DNA of 64,000 nucleotides from a virus (lineage: Duplodnaviria > Heunggongvirae > Uroviricota > Caudoviricetes). The notes under the pieces are model-generated. The model saw nothing but the letters and a program-made list of their open reading frames with translations. It was not told the origin of the DNA and did not search any database. How positions within the stretch are numbered: position 1 is the stretch's first letter; each line of letters starts with the position of its first letter. The stretch lies in IMG/VR virus record IMGVR_UViG_3300021400_000932. One strand, 5' to 3'. This document shows, one piece after another, positions 1 to 22,355 of this stretch. The position numbers were made by a program, and so were the translations under genes.

Positions 1-174
1 AACTGTTATATGGATTAGAATAGCTGCTGACAGGGTTGCTGTCATACTCTTCTTCAGAAAGCATTTCAGCAAAAGCTGCATCTAATGCATGAATGGTTGT
101 ACCCATATCTCTATTAGAAGATTGCATATCTAAATCATTGATGTCCATTTGTAACCTCATTGTAATTTACAGAT

Positions 175-251
175 TGGCTCCGAGGGTGGGACTCGAACCC
201 ACGACCCCATGATTAACAGTCATGTGCTACTACCAACTGAGCTACCTCGGA
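175..251 (-). tRNA. tRNA-Asn (anticodon GTT)
   Basis: Reverse complement folds as a cloverleaf: acceptor TCCGAGG/CCTCGGA, T-arm GTGGGTTCGAGTCCCAC, anticodon loop CTGTTAA, 3' CCA encoded. Confidence 0.85.
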
Positions 252-506
252 ATAAAAGTTGCAGGGAATAGGCTAACATCACCCTACTATGTGGACTCTA
301 ACCCTCTTATCTCCACTTCGGACAAACACCATTCCATATGCCCTTATGTTCTGGTACTATTCCTTGTCATCGGTTTATAGTTTCCCTCCTCAACGGGCGA
401 GGTGTCCGGCGCTCTCTGCAGGTCGTTGCTCACCTTTTGGGAACTGCACTTCCCTCACTACTTCGTGCAGAAAGTAGATGGCAAAGTACACTTATTTTGT
501 GTACTG

Positions 507-582
507 TGGCGATTCCAGCGGGGTTCGAACCCGCGACCTCTAGCGTGACAGGCTAGCGTTCTAACCAACTGAACTATGGAAC
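507..582 (-). tRNA. tRNA-Asp (anticodon GTC)
   Basis: Reverse complement GGTTCCATAGTTCAGTTGGTTAGAACG...CTGTCAC...GGTTCGAACCCCGC...GCCA; anticodon loop CTGTCAC; closely resembles bacterial tRNA-Asp. Confidence 0.85.
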
Positions 583-588
583 CGTATG

Positions 589-674
589 TGGTGCCGGTGG
601 TGGGACTTGAACCCACATGCTTATTCAGCAACAGATTTTGAGTCTGCCGTGTCTGCCAATTCCACCACACCGAC
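589..674 (-). tRNA. tRNA-Leu (anticodon CAA), type II with long variable arm
   Basis: Reverse complement has acceptor GTCGGTG/CACCGGC, anticodon stem-loop GCAGA-CTCAAAA-TCTGT, long variable arm, T-arm GTGGGTTCAAGTCCCAC, CCA encoded. Confidence 0.8.
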
Positions 675-679
675 ACATA

Positions 680-1381
680 TTATGAATATCTCTTATCCTT
701 GTCTTCTGCACTCCGGAAGATGAACTTCCGGTAATCCTCATAGTCTGAGAACTGAATGTACTCACCGGTGCGAACATCAAAGCAATTTGAATTTCTGCAA
801 AATTCATAGCTGTTTGCACTGACTACGATATAAATATCGCAAGATTCCCTCTGTTTGAAATCCTCAATAATGACATCGAACAAATCAGTTTTGACACTAT
901 CAATATTATCTACAGACAATCCACTATCGAGGGCATCCAGCAGCACCCAAATCTCCTTGCGGTTATTCGCATACTTACGAACAAATGCACCGATTTTCCT
1001 TGCTGTGTTGCCGAGATTCGTTACAATCTGTTCACCCTCAGAACTCTGTATCAATGTCGCAAGAAGACTCCAATCATCATGCCATCCAGCGGAATTCTTT
1101 GCTCTGTCGCCACCCTCACGGAGATTGTCGTAATGAAGAACAGCAACATCGGAATCTTGTTTTAAGATATCCTCTATGAGATTGAGAAATGTTGTCTTTC
1201 CAGAACCATTACACCCAACCAATACTGTGATTCCGCTTTTAATTACTACATCAGATTTCATATAAATCTTTCCGGAATCACCGCATTCATAAGGATTAGT
1301 AGGTATTTTGAATTTGTGCATATGTTCGCCTCCAGTTATGATGCCTAGGGTGTCGGGTATATGTGTGGTATAACCCGACAT
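680..1381 (-). CDS. P-loop NTPase, ABC/AAA_21-like minimal ATPase (likely start at internal Met MHKFKI)
   Basis: Walker A VLVGCNGSGKTTF preceded by an SMC/RecF-like N-terminal strand; Walker B IWVLLDALDSGL; no ABC signature motif; sits between tRNA genes. Confidence 0.6.
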   Translation of the reverse strand: MSGYTTHIPDTLGIITGGEHMHKFKIPTNPYECGDSGKIYMKSDVVIKSGITVLVGCNGSGKTTFLNLIEDILKQDSDVAVLHYDNLREGGDRAKNSAGWHDDWSLLATLIQSSEGEQIVTNLGNTARKIGAFVRKYANNRKEIWVLLDALDSGLSVDNIDSVKTDLFDVIIEDFKQRESCDIYIVVSANSYEFCRNSNCFDVRTGEYIQFSDYEDYRKFIFRSAEDKDKRYS

Positions 1382-1496
1382 TCTATGAATTCAATAACCA
1401 CACCTGAGTATTCATAGATGATGGTTTCAAAAAATTAAGGAGATTCATGAAAACCATTATTGAGTGTAGTGAAAAAAGTGTAAAAACCTACACCCA

Positions 1497-1593
1497 TGGT
1501 GGCGAGGGCAGGATTCGAACCTACGTTACCTGAGCTACATATCGTACTACTGTACTAAGCAATCAGTGTCTTAGACCACTTGACCAACCCGCC
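1497..1593 (-). tRNA. tRNA-like gene (type II-like, 97 nt) with non-canonical anticodon arm; identity undetermined, possibly pseudo-tRNA
   Basis: Reverse complement GGCGGGTTGGTCAAGTGG...GTAGGTTCGAATCCTGC CCTCGCC A CCA has good acceptor, D and T arms and an encoded CCA. No 5-bp anticodon stem with a 7-nt loop and U33/R37 can be drawn in the CTGATTGCTTAGTACAG region. Confidence 0.45.
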
Positions 1594-1710
1594 ATTTATA
1601 AATCAATAGGCTGTTCCTCTAACCCCATTTAACTACAGCACTTTGGACGCCTCGAAGTGTCAAACTTCTTCCATTATGCGATTTTCGTAGCACCCATCAA
1701 TTTTAATTTG

Positions 1711-2016
1711 TTATAAGAAATTCCTGCTCATAAAAAATTTCATAAAGCGTTCTTTAACCCTTCGGAACTTGTAAGAAATTCCCTTTGTAGAAATTACTTC
1801 GATTCCCATATTCCCATCCGGAAGTTTTGTGTTTCGAAATTCAAGAGAATCAATAGCATATCCGTATTCTGGTTCATCTATTGAGGTTTCTCCGGTTATA
1901 TGGAATCTCGATGAACCATCCTCATTAACCTTCGTGAATTCCAGCTCAATGAAGTATTCCTCATAGGAGTTATAAAGCCAGATGATGTCGCCTTGTTTTA
2001 ATTCTGATACTTTCAT
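1711..2016 (-). CDS. hypothetical protein
   Basis: 101-aa ORF in co-directional minus-strand array; no recognisable motif. Confidence 0.45.
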   Translation of the reverse strand: MKVSELKQGDIIWLYNSYEEYFIELEFTKVNEDGSSRFHITGETSIDEPEYGYAIDSLEFRNTKLPDGNMGIEVISTKGISYKFRRVKERFMKFFMSRNFL

Positions 2017-2025
2017 ATTGACCCC

Positions 2026-2241
2026 TTAATTATATTCAGTATCACAAAATTTGCAGATATGTCCATGTAATGGAGCTCCACAATTCTTGCAATTTGTGGG
2101 ATGATGTGGATGTTCATTTTCTATTGTGATTGGAACATCAGCTATTTGAGAATACCCATCTGCATTCCGGAGATATAAACCATCATTGCAACAACAGTAC
2201 AGTTGCGCCGATACAAACGACCAATCATTCATAACTTCCAC
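2026..2241 (-). CDS. zinc-ribbon protein (paralog of C-terminus of 15813..16151)
   Basis: C-terminal CKNCGAPLHGHICKFCDTEYN is nearly identical to CKNCGAPLHSNRCEFCDTEYD in ORF 15813..16151. Confidence 0.6.
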   Translation of the reverse strand: MEVMNDWSFVSAQLYCCCNDGLYLRNADGYSQIADVPITIENEHPHHPTNCKNCGAPLHGHICKFCDTEYN

Positions 2242-2252
2242 CTCACATCAAA

Positions 2253-2528
2253 TCAGGACATATGGTCTTCAACAAAAGATACCAAATCTGCCACTGTTCT
2301 GCATTCGCAAAATTCTGACAAAGCGGGTTCATTAATAGAGAATTTGAACATATCCTCTATATCAATAGCCAAGTCCACAGCATCAAGGGAATCAAGACCG
2401 AGGTCCCCACGAAGTTCGGTATCTAAAATTATCTCAGATTTATCTGTGTCTGATTGCTGAGATACCATGTTTCGTACAATTTCAAATACTTCTGACATTT
2501 GAACCTCCATGGCATATAACGATTTCAT
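2253..2528 (-). CDS. acpP: acyl carrier protein homolog (probable start at internal Met MSEVFEI)
   Basis: Phosphopantetheine-attachment motif LGLDSLDAVDL (DSL serine) in a small acidic ~80-aa protein, matching the bacterial ACP LGADSLD motif. Confidence 0.7.
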   Translation of the reverse strand: MKSLYAMEVQMSEVFEIVRNMVSQQSDTDKSEIILDTELRGDLGLDSLDAVDLAIDIEDMFKFSINEPALSEFCECRTVADLVSFVEDHMS

Positions 2529-2538
2529 TATACATATT

Positions 2539-2615
2539 TGGAGCAGATAAGGGGACTCGAACCCCCACTACCAACTTGGAAGGATGGTGTGCTAACCGTT
2601 GAACACTATATCTGC
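2539..2615 (-). tRNA. tRNA-Gly (anticodon TCC)
   Basis: Reverse complement GCAGATA...CCTTCCAAG anticodon loop (as in bacterial tRNA-Gly UCC), T-loop GGTTCGAGTCC, discriminator U, CCA encoded. Confidence 0.8.
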
Positions 2616-2634
2616 ATATTTGTAACTAAAAAAC

Positions 2635-3039
2635 TTAGTAGTTAAAAATTTGTCCATCTTCCGGTAGACCGGCAAATTCTGGACCCAGTTCATATGGGAA
2701 ACCATCGACATAAATGATATCGGCATCTTCATCATATGGATAAGTCTTGTTCACAGCATCACGAATAGAAGAATTGCTCTTGGCAATTTCCCGCGACCGC
2801 TTTTCAGTTGCGAAACTACGTGCAGCATTGACTAGCGAAAACATATCCGCATTAGAATAATATTTGCATTCGCAGTCCTTTTCATGATACGGAATCTTCT
2901 TCACACCAGAAAATACTAAAGTATTGATTCCACCTAATATATTCTGAATACTTGTTTCATCTGCATCGAATGCATGAAGAATATTATCAGAAAGTGCTAC
3001 GAAGATTGTATCACGCATCAACTTCATCCCTTTCATCAT
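2635..3039 (-). CDS. hypothetical protein
   Basis: 134-aa ORF between tRNA-Gly and tRNA-Leu; no clear motif. Confidence 0.45.
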   Translation of the reverse strand: MMKGMKLMRDTIFVALSDNILHAFDADETSIQNILGGINTLVFSGVKKIPYHEKDCECKYYSNADMFSLVNAARSFATEKRSREIAKSNSSIRDAVNKTYPYDEDADIIYVDGFPYELGPEFAGLPEDGQIFNY

Positions 3040-3189
3040 ATTCCTTCCGAACTAAATCATATCTATCTGCGGCTGACAACCTGTACCAATCATCTTTAAT
3101 ATCCAGAAAAGAAAAAACGGTAAGATTGTGTTCGGACAACAAATCGCAAAATTGTTCTTTATCCATATTTAACCTCAGAAATAAAAGTG

Positions 3190-3270
3190 TGGTGCGCCTG
3201 ACAGGACTCGAACCTGCACCCTTGCGGACTAGAGCCTAAATCTAGCGTGTATGCTTTCCACCACAGGCGC
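3190..3270 (-). tRNA. tRNA-Leu (anticodon TAG), type II
   Basis: Acceptor GCGCCTG/CAGGCGC, anticodon stem-loop CTAGA-TTTAGGC-TCTAG, variable arm, T-arm GCAGGTTCGAGTCCTGT, CCA encoded; D-loop lacks the GG dinucleotide. Confidence 0.7.
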
Positions 3271-3279
3271 ACATCTTAT

Positions 3280-3477
3280 TTATCCAATATCTCTATCATA
3301 AGTAGTTTTATCACAGTTCGGACATTTCATATAAGTGAAAAATTCTACGCACGGCGGAGAAATGTGGAGCTCAGCATCACTTCTATTCGCATACCACTCA
3401 CACCCACAATGTTTGCAAGTAAAATGAAACTCACCGGTCTTAGACTTGGTTACATCCCCCGATTTGACGATATTCAT
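3280..3477 (-). CDS. small zinc-ribbon protein
   Basis: CKHCGC...C...CPNC; two CxxC pairs in 65 aa. Confidence 0.5.
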   Translation of the reverse strand: MNIVKSGDVTKSKTGEFHFTCKHCGCEWYANRSDAELHISPPCVEFFTYMKCPNCDKTTYDRDIG

Positions 3478-3980
3478 AACAACTAACCTCGCTGTTCACC
3501 TAAGCATAAAGTTGTGCCGGATATTCCCCGCTCTATTCTCCGACTCCACCCCAATACACGCATTTGCCCATATCTGTGTCTTTACTGTCGTTTTTGTCGG
3601 ACAGGGTGGTATGTTTGTCAACTCAATACTTAGGATAGTCCCAAATTGCGTAGGCTTTATTGGCTTTGCATATTGGGCAGTATTTCGTACCATTTCACAT
3701 AGCACTTATCAGAGAGATTACTGTAGTTCCTCTCCATAAGATTTCAGCGCAGCACCTGCCCCTCCAGATGCCGAGTTTTATCCGTAACAAAACCAGACCT
3801 ATGTATTGAATTGACATTCTCTATCCACCACGCCGTACGCACATCATATAGCCCTCGGCGTAGCAGTCTGTGACCCCTCAAAGAGACGTGAGGTGCTTTC
3901 TTTGGCGGATTAGCTCGCCCCCGCCGGTCAGACATCGCCCTTTCATGCTTTGCCATCCTATAGTAAACCGACTTAGGTTT

Positions 3981-4056
3981 TGGTGTGCCGAGAGGGATTC
4001 GAACCCACGACCTGCGGATTAAAAGTCCGCTACTCTTCCGGCTGAGTTATCGGCAC
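3981..4056 (-). tRNA. tRNA-Lys (anticodon TTT)
   Basis: Acceptor GTGCCGA/TCGGCAC, anticodon stem-loop GCGGA-CTTTTAA-TCCGC, T-loop GGTTCGAATCC, CCA encoded. Confidence 0.85.
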
Positions 4057-4313
4057 ATAGATGTGAGGTTGGTAGTCATCCTTTTACTGCTGAGGGGGAC
4101 CCCACAACTCCCGTTTTCGAATGGGTCCGCACGGAGATTCCAAAAGGTGCGGATTTCGAAGTAGCTACTCTCCAGCTACAAGAAGAACGGTTTTACCAAA
4201 GGACTCACAACGCGATGTGAAAATCCTACCGACCGATAAGGGGATGATTTCTCGTTTACCATCCTAACGCCATCTTTTCGGCGACTAACCCAGGGCAGGT
4301 ATATGTTTCCCTT

Positions 4314-4400
4314 TGGTGCAAGTGAAGGGAATTGAACCCTTAATCCCAACAGGGCATGGGATTTTAAGTCCCACTTGTATGCCAGTTCCAACACACTTGC
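4314..4400 (-). tRNA. tRNA-Leu (anticodon TAA), type II
   Basis: Acceptor GCAAGTG/CACTTGC, anticodon TGGGA-CTTAAAA-TCCCA, variable arm CCC-TGTT-GGG, T-arm AAGGGTTCAATTCCCTT, CCA encoded. Confidence 0.85.
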
Positions 4401-4414
4401 ATATAATACTCGGG

Positions 4415-4717
4415 TTATCCGAACTGCATTACATCGGTAACCCAAGATGTTGGTATGTTCTTAGAATATCCGAAAGCCTTACATTGAAAGAATTCGTAAC
4501 TATGGTCGAAAGTTTCTTTCACAAACTTCAGTTCGGTTTCCGGAATATCTATTTCGAAGACAACTATATCTTCATGGAAAGTCCTCACTCTAGCGAATTT
4601 AAGCGCATTGTCCATCGAATCCGCAAGATATACTATGCCATCACAACCGGTTCGGATTACTTCATCCTGAACTATCGAAATGGCATTAGTACATCCCGTA
4701 GCATGATAATATTTCAT
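4415..4717 (-). CDS. hypothetical protein
   Basis: 100-aa ORF with AGGTGA ribosome-binding site and AATCGTTAT motif upstream; no confident domain. Confidence 0.5.
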   Translation of the reverse strand: MKYYHATGCTNAISIVQDEVIRTGCDGIVYLADSMDNALKFARVRTFHEDIVVFEIDIPETELKFVKETFDHSYEFFQCKAFGYSKNIPTSWVTDVMQFG

Positions 4718-4793
4718 ATCATATCACCTACTATATAACATAACGATTGTAAAATCAATATTTTTGATGAATTTTTATTTCGATGTGTAGCGA

Positions 4794-5252
4794 TTAAGAT
4801 TTGGCTTTTGAATCATGAGAGAACTGGACAGCCACATTGTCGGGATTATAAACCCAAACTTTGTGGACATGTAATTCAGATTCAACATCAATCACAGCAT
4901 TTCTTACACCGTAACCAAGAGACTTGGAAGAAATTTTATTCTTGAACCACTCAATGATGCGGTCAGCCTCAACTTCGTCCATATCCCTCAGACTTCCGAA
5001 AATACTGACGGTGTAGGAATCAACGCTATTCTTTACCGGATTCACCCAAACACTCATTGTAAGACTTCCCTCGGAACCCATAGGGAGATAGTTTTCTGGA
5101 TGGTTATATGCATCCTCGAAATCCCCATGTTCCCAAGAGCATTCCTTACCGAAACTCTTCTCAAACATTTCTTTTGCTTCTTCGACAGAAACCTGATTGC
5201 GCCGAATATCATCAATACGGGCAATCGCTGCAACTTGTAACCACTGACTCAT
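4794..5252 (-). CDS. hypothetical protein
   Basis: 152-aa ORF in minus-strand array. Confidence 0.5.
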   Translation of the reverse strand: MSQWLQVAAIARIDDIRRNQVSVEEAKEMFEKSFGKECSWEHGDFEDAYNHPENYLPMGSEGSLTMSVWVNPVKNSVDSYTVSIFGSLRDMDEVEADRIIEWFKNKISSKSLGYGVRNAVIDVESELHVHKVWVYNPDNVAVQFSHDSKAKS

Positions 5253-5269
5253 AATATAACCTCCTTGTA

Positions 5270-5665
5270 TTACTCTTGATTGAAAAACGTATCTAACTTG
5301 TCTGCTATCGTCGGCCAGAAGCCTTTGATGTACTGCTTATACCCATCCGAAGTTTCCTTGAACTCGCCTTTACGTATCTTATCAAAATCAGACTTCCACA
5401 TCTCCGGAACATTGAAAAGATATATGCCATATGTGTTATCATCTTCGTAATCATAGGTACTAACGAAATTCGGGTCTTCGTAAAGGACTTCCTCACCGAA
5501 TCCACAATTTCGGTTATTACCGCCGACACGTGTAAAGATAGCGATTTTATCATCCTCAACAAAACAATCGCGGAATCTCGGATATTCTGATTCTCTACGA
5601 CCAAGCAAAGGCATGATAAGTATGCAAGCAGGATTAAACCCATTAACCATATTGTACAGACTCAT
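5270..5665 (-). CDS. hypothetical protein
   Basis: 131-aa ORF; AATCGTTAT motif and GGAAAGGTGG ribosome-binding site upstream. Confidence 0.5.
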   Translation of the reverse strand: MSLYNMVNGFNPACILIMPLLGRRESEYPRFRDCFVEDDKIAIFTRVGGNNRNCGFGEEVLYEDPNFVSTYDYEDDNTYGIYLFNVPEMWKSDFDKIRKGEFKETSDGYKQYIKGFWPTIADKLDTFFNQE

Positions 5666-5780
5666 AGATTGACCACCTTTCCTATCTTTCTAATACACAT
5701 AACGATTCCATCATTAAAAATGTCAACAAAAATAGAACCCCACCGCAAGCGATGAGGTTCTATTGAAATTTTTGTGCAAA

Positions 5781-6407
5781 TTATGCAGAAATTTCGTCTG
5801 CGGTAAGCGGAATTACGCGCGAAATGACGAATGGCACAGAAACTGTCAGGATGGCCCCTCCGGCCTGGTCCCCTGGACCTCTGTTCAAAGCACCAATCCA
5901 AGTACCAGGACAACGGAGACCATGACGCAGATTACCTTGTCCATCATAGCGAAGGAAGTAAACCTGCTTCATATACTCTGTAGGTAATCCCATTCTTTCG
6001 GTTGCAGGGTCATACACCTGACGTCTCCACTCTTCGAGAGCTCCGAGAACATTAGGCTCACAGAAGCAGTTAAGAGTCCAAGTGACATCATCGAAGTTGA
6101 CCTTAGACGGGAATTTGATTAGACCATTACCGTAGTGTACTGTGATGATATCTTCACTCTCTGAGATATCACCGATTTCTGCGGTAGACAGGGTTAATAG
6201 GTCGGAATTTTCTGTCGGGCTGGAACCATCCATGTTGTAGATTCTTACCTCAAAGTTGTTAGTGGTCAGAGGTACATAGTTATCTACACCCAACATATGG
6301 TTTGTACGTTTGTGTTTAGCGGAATTTCGCAAGGATTCCGTTGTTGTAGCTCTCCGGAAACTACCTTTTACCTTTCGATAAAAGACCAGACTATTTGTTA
6401 ATCTCAT
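5781..6407 (-). CDS. hypothetical protein (first gene of a long minus-strand operon)
   Basis: 208-aa ORF starting at the divergent intergenic region 6408-6840. Confidence 0.5.
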   Translation of the reverse strand: MRLTNSLVFYRKVKGSFRRATTTESLRNSAKHKRTNHMLGVDNYVPLTTNNFEVRIYNMDGSSPTENSDLLTLSTAEIGDISESEDIITVHYGNGLIKFPSKVNFDDVTWTLNCFCEPNVLGALEEWRRQVYDPATERMGLPTEYMKQVYFLRYDGQGNLRHGLRCPGTWIGALNRGPGDQAGGAILTVSVPFVISRVIPLTADEISA

Positions 6408-6757
6408 TATATTTTGAGATTGTGGATTTTTCGCTCACCCATTGGCTTGGCAGCTAACTCCCCCTCAAGGGGATAGTCGTTGAACGTATTTCATATTGGA
6501 TATATTACCCAACTTAGAAATTTCGCTGCTAAACGTCCCATTGTTACATCTCTTACTTTTTAATCTATCACGATTACTATTTCTAGTTTCGTTGTAGCAA
6601 AGAGCTCTTAGGAACTTCAAAGCAATTAACACACAGCACATATGTATCACTACATATGTGGGGCATCATCCACCCATGTACAGCGGAGAAAACATATATT
6701 TTATCTCACCTTTCTATAATATTTTTGAGTTTTTGATTGACTCATTGATATTATAGG

Positions 6758-6786
6758 TTGCACTTTTTATGTTTTTATGATATAAT
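6758..6786 (+). promoter_or_regulatory. sigma-A/sigma-70-like promoter (TTGCAC-17nt-TATAAT)
   Basis: TTGCAC at 6758-6763, exactly 17 nt of spacer, TATAAT at 6781-6786; ~50 nt upstream of ATG 6841 with an A/G-rich ribosome-binding site. Confidence 0.55.
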
Positions 6787-7024
6787 TAGTACATAGGCAC
6801 AAATCACTTGAAAGGATTGGTAAGCTACGGAAAAAAGAAAATGTAAATTCTGCGGAAAAGAATTCTTACCCAAGTCTAATTTCCAGAAATACTGCAAAGG
6901 TCCGCATATCCGGATTTGTCCTGTTTGCGGAAAAGAGTACGAGGAAACCAATTCGGATAATCTGAAACGACCACCGCATGCTTGTTCCTATGCTTGCAGA
7001 GCAAAGAAAACCAGACAAACGAGT

Positions 7025-8530
7025 ATGGAAAGATATGGATGTGTTGCCCCTGGAAATAACATAGCAGCTAGAAAGAAAGCGAAAGCTACTATGCAAGAAC
7101 GATTTGGTGTTGACTATGCTATGCAATCGGAAACTGTCAGAAAGAAATCTGTTGCCACCAATATAAAAAAGTATGGTGTCGAAAACCCCCAACAAAATGA
7201 AACAATCAAACAAAAAACCGCAGAAACAAATCAGGAACGGTATGGGGGCACCGGTTTTCAATCAGAAGAGTTGCTAAATAAGTATAAAGATACAATGATT
7301 GATATATATGGTGTTACTTCCCCCATTCAAAACCAACAGATTCGACAGGATATTATGAATACTATGCAAGACAGACATGGCGCTTCATGGTTCTCTCAGA
7401 GTGAAGAATATAAAGATAAATGTCATACTACTTCATTATCTAAATATGGTGCGGAACACTGGATGCAAACAGATGAGTGTAAGCAGAAATGCAAAGATAC
7501 TTGGCTGCGGAATTATGGCGTTGATAATCCATCGAAATCTCCGCTAGTAATCGCCAAGATAAAGCAGACATTTATTGATAAGTATGGGACAGATGGACTA
7601 TTGAATGTAGCTGAAATCCGAGAGAAGATACAGAAGACTTGCATTGAAAGATATGGTGTTCCCTATGGGGTATTGACACCACAAGCACGAAAACACAATG
7701 GTGCTATATCGAAGCAAAACAAACAAGTAATGAAATTATTAGATGATGCCGGTTTGAGCTATCAGTCAGAATTCAATCTTGAAAATAAATCATTTGACAT
7801 CAAAATTTTATATTCCAATATACTTATTGAGATTGACCCATCATACACACATTCAATAGAACTAACTCACTGGAATACCTCTGTTTCAGATACATACCAT
7901 ATAGAAAAGACTATGTTGGCAAACAAACATGGATATCAATGTTACCATATCTTCGATTGGGACGATAGGAAAAAATTTGTCAAATCTCTAACTAAGAAAA
8001 AAGATATAGAAACAGACCAATATTATATATCTGAAGTAGATGAATTGACTGCAACTGAATTTTATTATAAATATTCCATCTATATGCCGGATACCAAGTA
8101 TGCAATCCATATTGGAATATTCAACAAGCGGAATAATGCACTACTGCAAGTATCGTCATTCAGATTCATAGATATTTCTAACTGTCGGTGGCTGCTTTGT
8201 GCTAACAGCATCAAATTCCAAATTAATGTTATAGATGGACTGCATAATATCATAGACCACTTTGTTAAATACTATGACCCTGCTGAAATTGTCGGATTAT
8301 GTGATATAGCAAAATCAAATGGGATGATGTTTGAATCAATAGGGTTCAAAGAACTTTCAGAAGAACCACCACGTTTGATTTGGAGTCGATATCGGTCAGC
8401 AATTTCTAATGACAATGTAAAAAGTCAAACCAAATTGAATGATGAACAAATATACTCTATGATGATAAACAATAAATATCTGCCTGTATATGACTGTGGA
8501 TACAAAGTATATTCATTGAAACTCCGGTAA
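7025..8530 (+). CDS. repeat-containing putative site-specific/homing endonuclease: tandem ~30-aa K..(K/R)YGV.NP.Q repeats plus C-terminal PD-(D/E)xK-like (DUF559/Vsr-type) domain; N-terminal Zn-finger module probably starts at 6841
   Basis: At least eight repeats (QERFGVDYAMQSE, KKYGVENPQQNE, QERYGGTGFQSEE, IDIYGVTSP, SKYGAEHWMQ, RNYGVDNPSKSP, DKYGTDGLLN, ERYGVPYGV). The C-terminal FDIKILYSNILIEIDPSYTH resembles a DUF559 nuclease core. The in-frame upstream sequence 6842-7024 encodes CKFCGKEF...CPVCGKEY and has no start codon. Confidence 0.75.
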   Translation: MERYGCVAPGNNIAARKKAKATMQERFGVDYAMQSETVRKKSVATNIKKYGVENPQQNETIKQKTAETNQERYGGTGFQSEELLNKYKDTMIDIYGVTSPIQNQQIRQDIMNTMQDRHGASWFSQSEEYKDKCHTTSLSKYGAEHWMQTDECKQKCKDTWLRNYGVDNPSKSPLVIAKIKQTFIDKYGTDGLLNVAEIREKIQKTCIERYGVPYGVLTPQARKHNGAISKQNKQVMKLLDDAGLSYQSEFNLENKSFDIKILYSNILIEIDPSYTHSIELTHWNTSVSDTYHIEKTMLANKHGYQCYHIFDWDDRKKFVKSLTKKKDIETDQYYISEVDELTATEFYYKYSIYMPDTKYAIHIGIFNKRNNALLQVSSFRFIDISNCRWLLCANSIKFQINVIDGLHNIIDHFVKYYDPAEIVGLCDIAKSNGMMFESIGFKELSEEPPRLIWSRYRSAISNDNVKSQTKLNDEQIYSMMINNKYLPVYDCGYKVYSLKLR

Positions 8531-8539
8531 ACAAAAATA

Positions 8540-8578
8540 AGGCACACCCAACCAAGCAACAAGGGTGTGCCTTTTTTG
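8540..8578 (+). terminator. rho-independent terminator (GGCACACCC...GGGTGTGCC + T6)
   Basis: 9-bp GC-rich stem with 13-nt loop followed by TTTTTT, immediately after the stop of the plus-strand gene. Confidence 0.7.
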
Positions 8579-8585
8579 TATAGGA

Positions 8586-8831
8586 TTAATTAATGACCAA
8601 GCAAAGCGTTCCAGAACCGTCTTCGGAAGGAGAAAATACCGTATAGGAATAAGGCGTGTAGTCGAATGCATCATAGGTTTCTTTCTTTTCTTTAATCATA
8701 AGCATAGGTTCTATGCCGGAAATACCTTGATAGCCACTTTTCTCCATATCTGACTGATAGCTAATGATGGGAGTATCATCCGGCAAATCTTTAATTGCTT
8801 CTTTTAGATGTCTTACGGTACGTACTATCAT
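8586..8831 (-). CDS. hypothetical protein
   Basis: 81-aa ORF. Confidence 0.4.
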   Translation of the reverse strand: MIVRTVRHLKEAIKDLPDDTPIISYQSDMEKSGYQGISGIEPMLMIKEKKETYDAFDYTPYSYTVFSPSEDGSGTLCLVIN

Positions 8832-8847
8832 AATGGACCCCCTTCAA

Positions 8848-9198
8848 CTAAGGTTTTTCTTTTGCAACTTTTCTTTGTCGCCGGTAATCATAGAGAGCAT
8901 CAATCAGCTTCTTCTGGTCAGCGGTAGGGATATCTTTCTTTGCGATAATACCTCTGTCTGCATAAGTAAGAAGAGTTCTGCGAACAGATTCATACTTAGC
9001 ATAGGCCTCACAGTAAATATCTCTGGCTTCGTTCAGTTTCACAATTAGCTGATTGAGTTCTTCGATTTTCTGCTTTGCATTCTCAGTCGCCTTGCCATTA
9101 TCGGGGCTTACATTAGAAGAACCGCAGTATGGACAAAACTTCGGCTTGTTTGCAAATCGAAATCGCTTATTGCAGTCAGAACAGATAAATTGTTTCAT
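8848..9198 (-). CDS. zinc-ribbon / coiled-coil protein
   Basis: N-terminal CSDCNKRF...CPYCGS; AATCGTTTAT motif and GAGGTGA ribosome-binding site upstream. Confidence 0.55.
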   Translation of the reverse strand: MKQFICSDCNKRFRFANKPKFCPYCGSSNVSPDNGKATENAKQKIEELNQLIVKLNEARDIYCEAYAKYESVRRTLLTYADRGIIAKKDIPTADQKKLIDALYDYRRQRKVAKEKP

Positions 9199-21116: not shown

Positions 21117-21300
21117 CCACACGACTAAAGTCGTGGGATTCTTGCTTCAACGACTACGGCGAGCGTTTTACTCAAAGAGTTCAGCTCGACTTACACAATC
21201 TCCACAAGCTAGATTAAAGAGTTCCCGTGTGCCCCACGGTGCTCTGTGTATTAATAGAGGTTAAGCTATCATAGCCAACCCTTTAGTTAATATATTCATA
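21117..21300 (-). ncRNA. putative TnpB omega/right-end guide RNA (3' end of tnpB plus right end)
   Basis: Structured ~145-nt right-end segment downstream of the tnpB stop, ending in the terminal hairpin; by analogy to characterised IS605 TnpB systems. Confidence 0.4.
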
Positions 21301-22355
21301 GCGGCATTGACATCTCTGTCGTGATACTCTCCGCACTCGGGGCAAGTCCACTTTCGTATAGCTAAATTCTTAACTAATGGATTTTTATATCCGCACTTGT
21401 TACACAACTGACTGCTCGGATAGGTAGTAGGCACTCTCTGTACTGTCCTGCCGTACCAGGCAGCTTTGTATTCAAGCATTGTAAAAAACTTAGACCACGA
21501 AGCGGAGGATATACTTTTAGCCAGCTTGTGATTTTTGAGCATATTTTTGATTTTCAAGTCTTCTACACAGATTACTTGGTTTTCGTTAATCAGTGTAGTT
21601 GAAAGCTTTTGCAAAAAATCATTTCGCTGATTAGATACCTTCTCGTGGACTTTAGCTACTCTTAGTCGTTGCTTATCTCTGTTATGGGAGTCAACCTTCT
21701 TTCTGGAAAGTTTTCTTTGTTCTCTGCGTAATTTTCTTTGTGTTCGTTCTAACCTTTTGTGATTAGGTACAGAATTACCGTTACTGTCGGAATAGAAATC
21801 TTTTATGCCGACATCTATACCAATAACGGAATCTATTCTGTCTAAAGGTTGAGGTTCAAAGTCAATGTTAAGAACAGCAAAATACTTTCCTGTAGGTGTT
21901 CTCTCTACAGTAACATTATTAATATGACCTATATTCATTGACTGTTTGACTTTAATATAGCCAAGCTTTGGTAACTTTAGTTTATTGCCGTCAATGCGAA
22001 TATTATTACCTTGATTAAGAGTTCTGTAACTCTGGCGATGGTTATGTTTACTTTTGAAACAAGGATATCTGCCTAACTTCTTAAAGAAGTTTTGATACGC
22101 TCGGTCTAAATCCCTGAGAGATTGTTGCAGAGCAATACTATCAACTTCCTTAAGAAAGGAAAAGTCATCTTGCATTTTCATAGAGGTGAGCATAGCAGAA
22201 GTAGCGGTATAGTTAGCTTTATTACCTAACTTGTATTGTTCAATTCTGTATGCTAAACCTTTGTTGTAAATGAATCGAACACAACCAAGAGTGCGGTTTA
22301 TTATGTTTTGCTGTTCCCGATTGGGATAGATACGAAACTTTACACCTTTGTTCAT
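21261..22355 (-). CDS. tnpB: TnpB (IS605 OrfB-family RNA-guided nuclease)
   Basis: 364 aa; RuvC-like motifs ([10 protein letters not shown]) and C-terminal zinc finger CNKCG...CPECG. Confidence 0.85.

Follow-up and report, generated by a model that had tools for sequence, protein, structure and literature searches.

Since T4, tRNA islands have been a familiar feature of bacteriophages, and after fifty years there is still no settled role for the stable RNAs found with them. Here we describe such an island in a 64,000-nt stretch of DNA from a virus of the Caudoviricetes (IMG/VR record IMGVR_UViG_3300021400_000932; this whole stretch is termed the window), where tRNA genes, protein genes and non-coding spacers lie on the minus strand between positions 175 and 4400. 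What is new in this locus are conserved structured RNAs between the tRNAs, above all a 112-nt module, together with a tRNA-like RNA derived from tRNA-Glu.

Two further stable RNAs, rnaC (species 1) and rnaD (species 2), are encoded in the tRNA cluster of T4, and neither has been assigned a role (PMC3014915); rnaC combines a tRNA-type T arm (CCGGGUUCGAAUCCCGG) with a closing acceptor-like helix. The likeness to this region put forward in the original prediction is borne out by a T4-type portal, a family A polymerase and a RecA/UvsX-like gene in the window, as well as by the presence of rnaC and rnaD in the T4 cluster. Both islands are one-strand tRNA clusters of phages with a T4-type portal and carry small open reading frames (ORFs) between the tRNAs; in T4, extra stable-RNA genes adjoin the tRNAs, and here extra RNA candidates do, known from sequence alone. 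These are larger (257 and ~480 nt) and more numerous than the T4 RNAs (119-139 nt) and, unlike the T4 region, the island also holds genes for a transfer-messenger RNA (tmRNA), an acyl carrier protein (ACP) and an ATPase. An nhmmer comparison of all spacers and tRNA-like RNAs with T4 positions 68000-76000 gave no match at E ≤ 10. For the 97-nt tRNA-like RNA of the island, rnaC is the nearest precedent, with a T arm and a closing helix in both; the 97-nt gene lies in the tRNA cluster, is predicted to have a tRNA-like shape, and may encode a stable small RNA of this kind.

ROOL and GOLLD, which are "encoded in phages, often near tRNA islands" (PMC12286853; PMC5737381), are large, highly structured RNAs of unknown function in phages and prophages, ROOL having first been found in cow rumen metagenomes. 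The spacers share their setting, being phage-encoded, situated beside a tRNA island and predicted to adopt a large multi-helix fold. Like them, spacer B joins a 5′ domain that varies to a 3′ module that is conserved (in the relative L012, the module follows tRNA-Met). The spacer RNAs are smaller, measuring 257-480 nt as against about 580 and over 800 nt for ROOL and GOLLD. Because no Rfam model matches at E ≤ 10, the spacers are neither ROOL nor GOLLD. As far as its sequence tells, the locus works like the T4 rnaC/rnaD region and the ROOL/GOLLD islands, but belongs to none of those RNA families.

In tRNA-punctuated systems such as mitochondrial transcripts and the tRNA-microRNA units of MHV68, cuts by RNase P or RNase Z define the RNA ends. 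The island shares with them a layout in which RNAs, here candidates, lie directly against tRNA or tRNA-like elements, although those systems are eukaryotic or eukaryotic-viral. Finally, two reports describe large phages with tRNA sets able to replace host tRNAs that are cleaved by defences (PMC10264068; PMC11555353). Lys, Leu, Asn and Asp tRNAs are present in this island. The tRNA-like RNA, lacking an anticodon loop, has nothing of this kind to shield and could not serve as a decoy in any known manner.

The 112-nt module and the structured spacers

The window is identical to part of L001, a 193,432-bp metagenomic contig, and L002 (182,809 bp) is a relative with 93-97% identity. More distant relatives were recovered via homologues of the island ATPase, whose amino-acid identity to the window protein is 85% in L006, L007, L010, L011, and L023, 84% in L107, 56% in L108, and ~51-53% in L012, L018, L025, and L026. 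Judged by their contig labels, all relatives appear to come from rumen or gut metagenomes.

Within the module, the core (CCGACAAAAACGACAGUAAAGACACAGAUAUGGGCAAAUGCGUGUAUUGGG) is near-invariant, and helix P3 is closed by the loop GAAUAGAGCGGGGAAUA. Among nine distinct variants from three clades, 77 positions do not change at all, including a nearly unbroken 50-nt core and a 17-nt hairpin loop, and this over distances at which third codon positions of the ATPase gene are 37% identical between module-bearing clades, that is, saturated. The helices, in contrast, covary freely around this core. Thus, P1 pairs CCACCCU with GGGGUGG in the window, GAUCCU with GGGAUC in L012, and AAGCCCU with GGGGCUU in L108, while P3 pairs GUCGGA with UCCGGC in the window, GUCAGA with UCUGAC in L023, GUAGUUGA with UCAACUAC in L012, and GUAGCAGA with UCUGCUAC in L108. 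Seven of the 12 helix pairs are changed on both sides, which we count as compensatory, and 98% of the cells are paired compared with ~40% in controls with helix partners slid; none of 500 shuffles reached the observed score. Since a U-G pair in P1 is conserved, the module transcript is the minus strand. The invariant core framed by freely covarying stems resembles the pattern of ribozymes and aptamers; from the self-cleaving ribozymes and riboswitches of Rfam 15, no curated model matched at E ≤ 10 over 3470-3990.

The module ends 0-4 nt before tRNA-Leu(UAG) in six of the eight other variants, and it lies directly 5′ of this tRNA in L006, L023, L012, L018, L025, and L108. It fills the whole gap between tRNA-Met and tRNA-Leu(UAG) in L012, L018, and L025, and follows a protein-coding stretch in L108. 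Only in the lineage of the window and L002 does a 65-amino-acid zinc-ribbon ORF lie between the module and tRNA-Leu(UAG). With a covariance model (R1), the copy in the window reaches 140 bits, which is unsurprising for a member of the training alignment, and no other module copy was found in 80 further IMG/VR large-phage loci (1.7 Mb). Exact core patterns searched in IMG/VR, JGI metagenomes and GTDB genomes recovered only the same rumen-phage group and two chance matches, and nothing in the genomes. A possible pseudoknot between AUAGAG of the P3 loop and CUUUAU of the 3′ tail was also considered; it fits most variants, shows no both-sided change, and is broken in L002 and L025.

The spacers of the island had been described from the sequence as GC-rich and RNA-like. 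They lie at 252-506 (C), 3478-3980 (B), and 4057-4313 (A), and their GC content reaches 0.60 at 3851-3950, 0.54 at 4051-4150, and 0.54 at 351-450 (100-nt windows) against 0.394 for the window, and they are conserved and structured in related phages, to the degrees given below. Between the window and L006, spacer B is 86.9% identical over 481 aligned columns and spacer A 75% (80% to L010), compared with 72-82% overall and 53-63% at third codon positions for three flanking genes. The spacers do not encode protein and have diverged less than the genes around them. ORFs of 30-89 amino acids can be drawn in every spacer, as would be the case if small proteins were encoded there. The 70-amino-acid ORF of spacer B, however, is not conserved, an unrelated and differently terminated ORF of 64 amino acids taking its place in L006; one- and two-base indels shift the frames inside conserved spacer blocks; and a one-base deletion in L006 destroys the single short frame available in the core of the module, which is thereby excluded. 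On these grounds a coding role for the spacers is extremely improbable. The conserved G-U pairs fit only the minus-strand transcript.

Spacer A was compared in four variants that are 75-87% identical. RNAalifold predicts 59 pairs for them, with 97% of the cells paired as against 29-45% in the slid controls and seven pairs changed on both sides as against 0-1; one hairpin of ~29 nt is optional, L006 and L010 having lost it in a clean deletion. In the 5′ domain of spacer B, a spacer ~87% identical to L006 and L023, 92 pairs are predicted, of which 5 are changed on both sides, and 99.5% of the cells are paired among the four sequences from which the structure itself was derived. Further, a variable hairpin (alignment columns 108-160) is rewritten in every clade. 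The predicted fold is thus only suggestive of a structured 5′ domain. Spacer C, which was found only in L002, where 226 nt are identical and the 5′ hairpin carries one compensatory change (minimum free energy z -1.5), is possibly a structured RNA and is listed as a candidate only.

No Rfam family matched in the spacers, either at the gathering threshold or at E ≤ 10 (whole window, 1-7000, and 3470-3990); with relaxed filters at E ≤ 10, there were zero matches over 3470-3990, and over 1-7000 tRNA-related and chance matches only. Searches of GenBank phages (megablast with positions 1-8000, blastn with each of spacers A, B, and C) returned tRNA matches only, and nhmmer with every spacer on 80 IMG/VR loci of ATPase-bearing large phages gave no further homologues. 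Spacers A and C, both ~255 nt long, are not repeats of each other. Spacer B as an RNase P RNA, tmRNA, 6S RNA, signal recognition particle RNA or T-box was likewise rejected, as neither Rfam nor ARAGORN matched it and no RNase P P4 helix motif was seen by eye.

That the spacers abut tRNAs, that the module always precedes tRNA-Leu(UAG), and that promoter-like hexamers occur in the island would also fit spacers that are only processing or regulatory parts of a tRNA precursor (leaders, trailers, guide structures for RNase E or RNase P, promoters) and functionless after excision. At 255-500 nt, however, they far exceed usual tRNA leaders and are more conserved than the neighbouring genes, and a core with 77 positions that stay unchanged between clades whose synonymous sites are saturated is under more constraint than a passive spacer should be. 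In addition, the module is intact in the window and L002 despite the ORF before tRNA-Leu(UAG). We therefore regard a pure processing role as unlikely.

Even less probable, and in our view very unlikely, is an origin of the spacers as mobile-DNA relics (degenerate introns, homing-endonuclease cassettes, miniature elements) that are conserved only through recent acquisition. Such relics would suit a mosaic island in which spacer C, tRNA-Asn, and two ORFs are swapped for an unrelated 391-nt spacer in L006, in which the variants of spacer A look recombinant, and which shares its window with a group I intron and a TnpB gene. Yet no repeats or inverted termini flank the spacers and no intron family matches them; stems acquired by recent transfer, moreover, would be identical, but those of P1 and P3 have diverged through compensatory changes while the core that they frame is invariant.

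The 97-nt tRNA-like gene

One of the eight tRNA-type genes is 97 nt long and departs from a canonical tRNA. ARAGORN calls it Lys-CTT with a poorly paired anticodon stem if introns are disallowed, and Tyr-GTA with a 22-nt intron if they are allowed; in the relatives, it is uncalled, or called Gly-CCC, or assigned an undetermined type with a 4-base anticodon. An alignment with the phage tRNA-Glu(UUC) genes reveals a common D arm GUCAAGUGGU(C)UAAGAC, a common GGUAAC variable loop, and a common T loop and A73 discriminator followed by CCA. Because these elements align, the 97-nt gene is, as judged by sequence, a tRNA-Glu paralogue. In place of the 17-nt anticodon arm there are ~38 nt which, together with the variable loop, make up a variable 43-nt central domain with a small hairpin.

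The tRNA body is well preserved. In five variants from three clades, eight pairs of the cloverleaf are changed on both sides in the acceptor stem, T stem, and inner hairpin, 93.9% of the cells are paired compared with 34-42% with partners slid, and the D arm is invariant. The inner hairpin itself shows a compensatory change, from GUAC-NNNN-GUAC in the window and L012 to GUGC-AGUA-GCAC in L002 and L006. Compared with L002 and L006, the gene keeps 94-97% identity (93.8% between window and L006), while the alignable part of the downstream flank reaches 88% and the upstream flank is poorly alignable. Identity above that of the flanks and compensatory pairs thus indicate that the gene is under selection and not a pseudogene. 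A decaying tRNA-Glu pseudogene would account for the Rfam score of only 36.9 bits, for the missing usable anticodon, and for a central domain whose fold is weak and varies between clades. It would not account for a gene that is kept in three clades and is more similar than its flanks within the clade of the window, nor for the eight compensatory pairs, the invariant D arm and the encoded CCA, and we consider decay improbable.

The anticodon region behaves differently. The gene lacks a canonical anticodon arm with its 5-bp stem, its 7-nt loop, and an anticodon shared by the relatives. Read directly from the alignment, the implied anticodon differs by clade (GUA, GCG, GGG/AGG), the 4-bp stem that would close its loop is broken in two clades (L006 and L012), and the central domain folds weakly and differently among the clades and differs in L107. 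The gene also does not conform to an intron-containing tRNA, the implied anticodon and stem being unconserved, the insertion measuring only 21-22 nt, and no group I intron matching there. A real tRNA with a short intron, spliced to a decoder, nevertheless has points in its favour: the ARAGORN intron model supports tRNA-Tyr(GUA), and no tRNA-Tyr gene was found in the phage loci examined although Tyr makes up 5% of codons; alternatively, the L012 copy keeps UUUCGC beside its hairpin, resembling the Glu anticodon loop CUUUCAC, and might yield tRNA-Glu(UUC) after loss of the 14-nt hairpin. The variation of the implied anticodon on a nearly identical tRNA body and the broken anticodon stems in L006 and L012 speak against it, however. 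Further, no bulge-helix-bulge motif is evident in the gene, the scanned window proteins include neither an RNA ligase nor a splicing endonuclease, and bacteria are not known to splice such short tRNA introns. A spliced decoder is therefore rather unlikely. Since acceptor, D, and T arms are kept but a variable domain takes the place of the anticodon arm, the 97-nt RNA is best described, from its predicted structure, as tRNA-shaped and non-decoding, with no assignable specificity.

A further candidate was seen in L012, where a 171-nt spacer after the tmRNA (5998-6168) contains a T-arm-like AUAGGUUCGACUCCUAU and an AGAGG/CCUCU closing helix. ARAGORN makes no call there. The spacer may belong to a third type of tRNA-like RNA, one that carries a large insertion.

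Canonical tRNAs, protein genes and the wider island

The original prediction had listed eight tRNA-type genes, seven of them canonical and on the minus strand. The predictors do fold these loci: ARAGORN places all eight on the minus strand and reproduces all coordinates and the seven anticodons, and all eight genes score above the gathering score (29 bits) of the Rfam tRNA model RF00005, with 36.9-72.1 bits overall, 53-72 bits for the seven canonical genes (E ≤ 1.5e-8), and the lowest value for the 97-nt gene. All eight encode the 3′ CCA, as read directly from the sequence, and the seven canonical genes have a 5-bp anticodon stem, a 7-nt loop and the same anticodons in L002, L006, and L023. 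tRNA-Leu(UAG) is atypical in being 81 nt long, with a D loop without GG, and is 75.6% identical to an 86-nt copy in L002; it is either evolving fast or was replaced by recombination where the zinc-ribbon ORF inserted.

Taken alone, the tRNA cluster is not unusual in a large phage. Its tRNAs would serve phage translation, whether by meeting codon demand or by standing in for host tRNAs depleted by defences. Among the phage Leu codons, TTA accounts for 21% and TTG for 24%, and CTA, the cognate of tRNA-Leu(UAG), is rarest at 7%; AAA makes up 49% of Lys codons and AAT 72% of Asn codons. Codon supplementation, which had been proposed for the island, fits only in part: codon usage is compatible with it for UUA, UUG, AAA, and AAU, but not obviously for CUA.

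Pfam matches and motifs agree with the identities first given to the interleaved protein genes, namely a P-loop ATPase, an ACP homologue, and zinc ribbons (Table 1). The true start of the ATPase is MHKF behind a GGAGG ribosome-binding site, and its exact product is on record in public assemblies. Invariant GCNGxGK, SSEGE, and DxxDSG motifs provide Walker A, a signature-like motif, and Walker B on a modelled free-standing ABC nucleotide-binding-domain fold (pLDDT 82.6), and the best Foldseek matches are ABC nucleotide-binding domains with a TM score of ~0.45. The predicted fold is that of a generic ABC nucleotide-binding domain, from which no function can be deduced. A defence-system identity was rejected, as the PADLOC and PDB matches (AriA, PtuA, GajA, and ABC-F among them) cover the P-loop region only. 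IMG/VR peptide scans with the ATPase and a 152-amino-acid ORF gave no close relatives. ATPase homologues occur in well over 100 large phage contigs, often but not always near tRNAs; a tRNA or tmRNA is present in 41 of 106 loci of all origins, and in several clades that are only distantly related (L012, L107, L108) the gene lies within or next to the tRNA island.

The ACP matches PF00550 with 41.8 bits against a cut-off of 20.8 and carries the serine attachment motif of PP-binding proteins; by the start of the gene caller it is 81 amino acids long (2253-2498). About 4.4 kb downstream of it lie genes for a PF01467 cytidylyltransferase-family protein, possibly a phosphopantetheine adenylyltransferase, and for CoaE, a dephospho-CoA kinase (L001 11504-12504), and the three together may constitute a phage coenzyme A/phosphopantetheine module. 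Among the small ORFs, that of 51 amino acids is absent from L002, and the homologue of the 65-amino-acid zinc ribbon in L108 is found upstream of tRNA-Lys.

Table 1. Features of the RNA island; positions refer to the window unless L001 is named.
Feature	Position	Strand	Remarks
tRNA-Asn(GUU)	175-251	-	ARAGORN, Rfam
Spacer C	252-506	-	255 nt, GC-rich, between tRNA-Asp and tRNA-Asn; RNA candidate, weak support
tRNA-Asp(GUC)	507-583	-	ARAGORN, Rfam
tRNA-Leu(CAA)	589-674	-	ARAGORN, Rfam
Stand-alone ABC-type ATPase	680-1321	-	213 amino acids; Walker A; weak ABC/AAA matches
tRNA-Glu-derived tRNA-like RNA	1497-1593	-	97 nt; CCA encoded; Rfam tRNA 36.9 bits
71-amino-acid zinc-ribbon ORF (2026-2241) and 101-amino-acid ORF	1711-2241	-	Paired CxxC in the zinc ribbon
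Acyl carrier protein	2253-2528	-	PF00550 PP-binding, E 1.3e-10; phrog_5934; DSLD motif
tRNA-Gly(UCC)	2539-2615	-	ARAGORN, Rfam
Two small ORFs (134 and 51 amino acids)	2635-3166	-	No family match
tRNA-Leu(UAG)	3190-3270	-	ARAGORN, Rfam 53 bits
65-amino-acid zinc-ribbon ORF	3280-3477	-	Two CxxC pairs; weak zinc-ribbon Pfam matches
112-nt conserved module	3502-3613	-	Helices P1 and P3; last ~110 nt of spacer B
Spacer B 5′ domain	3614-3980	-	Structured RNA candidate, ~367 nt; starts at the base after tRNA-Lys
tRNA-Lys(UUU)	3981-4056	-	ARAGORN, Rfam 69.4 bits
Spacer A	4057-4313	-	Structured RNA candidate, 257 nt; exactly between tRNA-Leu(UAA) 3′ end and tRNA-Lys 5′ end
tRNA-Leu(UAA)	4314-4400	-	CCA encoded; ARAGORN, Rfam 54.3 bits
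tmRNA	L001 10545-10997		71 bits; outside the window
Second tRNA-like RNA	L001 14934-15058		Follows tRNA-Ala; conserved 48-nt insertion

A T4-type portal, family A DNA polymerase, RecA/UvsX-like protein, clamp loader, and primase are among the window proteins, which marks the source as a large phage that has replication genes and a T4-like portal. In this ~190-kb phage, which was recovered from rumen metagenomes, the minus-strand RNA island spans at least ~10 kb (L001 4922-15058) and extends beyond the start of the window; neither this extension nor the tmRNA had been part of the original prediction, and within the window neither ARAGORN nor Rfam detects a tmRNA. Beyond the window start follow, in L001, tRNA-Pro, a 391-nt spacer, the tmRNA, a 506-nt spacer, a cytidylyltransferase-family gene, CoaE, RNase H, a 630-nt spacer, tRNA-Gln, and tRNA-Ala. 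Further spacers of 337-630 nt in L001 9403-15395 are kept in L006 and match no Rfam family. Where window positions 1-506 hold spacer C, tRNA-Asn, and two ORFs, L006 has an unrelated non-coding stretch of 391 nt (8494-8884), and the island is a mosaic of exchangeable RNA cassettes. P0015, P0018, P0034, P0035, and P0031, which were followed up as well, fell in phages without RNA islands.

Outside the island, a group I intron (Rfam RF00028, 64.1 bits; window 6366-6681, minus strand) overlaps the 5′ end of ORF 5781-6407, and neither this ORF nor ORF 6866-7261 matches a Pfam family. A TnpB/IS605 OrfB-type gene (HTH_OrfB_IS605, OrfB_IS605, Cas12f1-like TNB) lies at 21261-22355 on the minus strand; a gene of this type is also present in L107 (2114-3262), ~2 kb upstream of the tRNA island of that relative.

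A working model of the island and its meaning

We consider it likely that positions 175-4400 are part of a co-transcribed operon of tRNAs and structured RNAs that is processed by tRNA enzymes and that includes a non-decoding tRNA-like RNA and small protein genes. A terminator scan called none on the minus strand from 4730 down to position 1. Just upstream, at 5764-5731, is a terminator of 15 bp, and there is a promoter-like site at 4758-4730. The island would be transcribed as one or a few long precursors, in which host RNase P would cut at the 5′ end of each tRNA while 3′-end processing trims its other end. As structured spacers abut tRNAs on both sides, excision of the tRNAs would also release discrete stable RNAs, a release suggested by the layout and by the precedent of T4 rnaC and rnaD. 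These spacer RNAs are probably stable structured RNAs with a function of their own, directed at the translation or RNA-processing machinery. Such a target is suggested by their company of tRNAs, tmRNA, and tRNA-like RNAs and by analogy to GOLLD, which is reported to pull down ribosomes (PMC12286853). Our best guess is that spacer RNAs and tRNA-like RNA would act in trans on these host machineries, alongside the tmRNA.

Several points weigh against this interpretation. The main weakness is narrow phylogenetic sampling: the module family consists of nine sequences from one rumen-phage group, the structures of spacer A and of the spacer B 5′ domain were predicted from the same four closely related sequences by which they are judged, and spacer C is essentially without comparative support. 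Single-sequence folding energies are unremarkable for the spacers (z -0.9 to -2.4) and lie at z -0.5 to -2.1 for the module, whose invariant core yields no covariation and hence no core fold. The transcription unit could also be interrupted by a weak hairpin with a U-run that follows the tRNA-like gene (~1465-1490). Moreover, we infer processing by RNase P and a 3′ nuclease from the gene layout alone, and the trans-acting role of the spacer RNAs is a guess.

A more far-reaching proposal, which we put forward tentatively and hold to be possible though on the doubtful side, is that the module, with its near-invariant core of ~60 nt and its place immediately before tRNA-Leu(UAG) in most relatives, represents a new class of catalytic or ligand-binding RNA that might act on, or be co-regulated with, this tRNA or the translation machinery. 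The tRNA-Glu-derived RNA would then be a natural "tRNA scaffold" presenting a variable, clade-specific loop of 21-22 nt, and the island with spacers A and B and the tmRNA would form an RNA-based toolkit for host takeover.

Should processing turn out to be the only role of the RNAs, what remains is an ordinary tRNA cluster. The locus adds at least two, and probably four, RNA families that are absent from Rfam to the stable RNAs of phage tRNA islands, which ROOL and GOLLD have shown can be large and elaborate. One of these families combines ribozyme- or aptamer-type conservation with covarying stems and a fixed position beside one tRNA; in another, a tRNA-Glu gene appears to have been turned into a non-decoding, tRNA-shaped RNA that is kept by selection. 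Both the module and the tRNA-like RNA are small enough for direct biochemistry and could help to explain why non-coding RNAs occur among the tRNAs of large phages.

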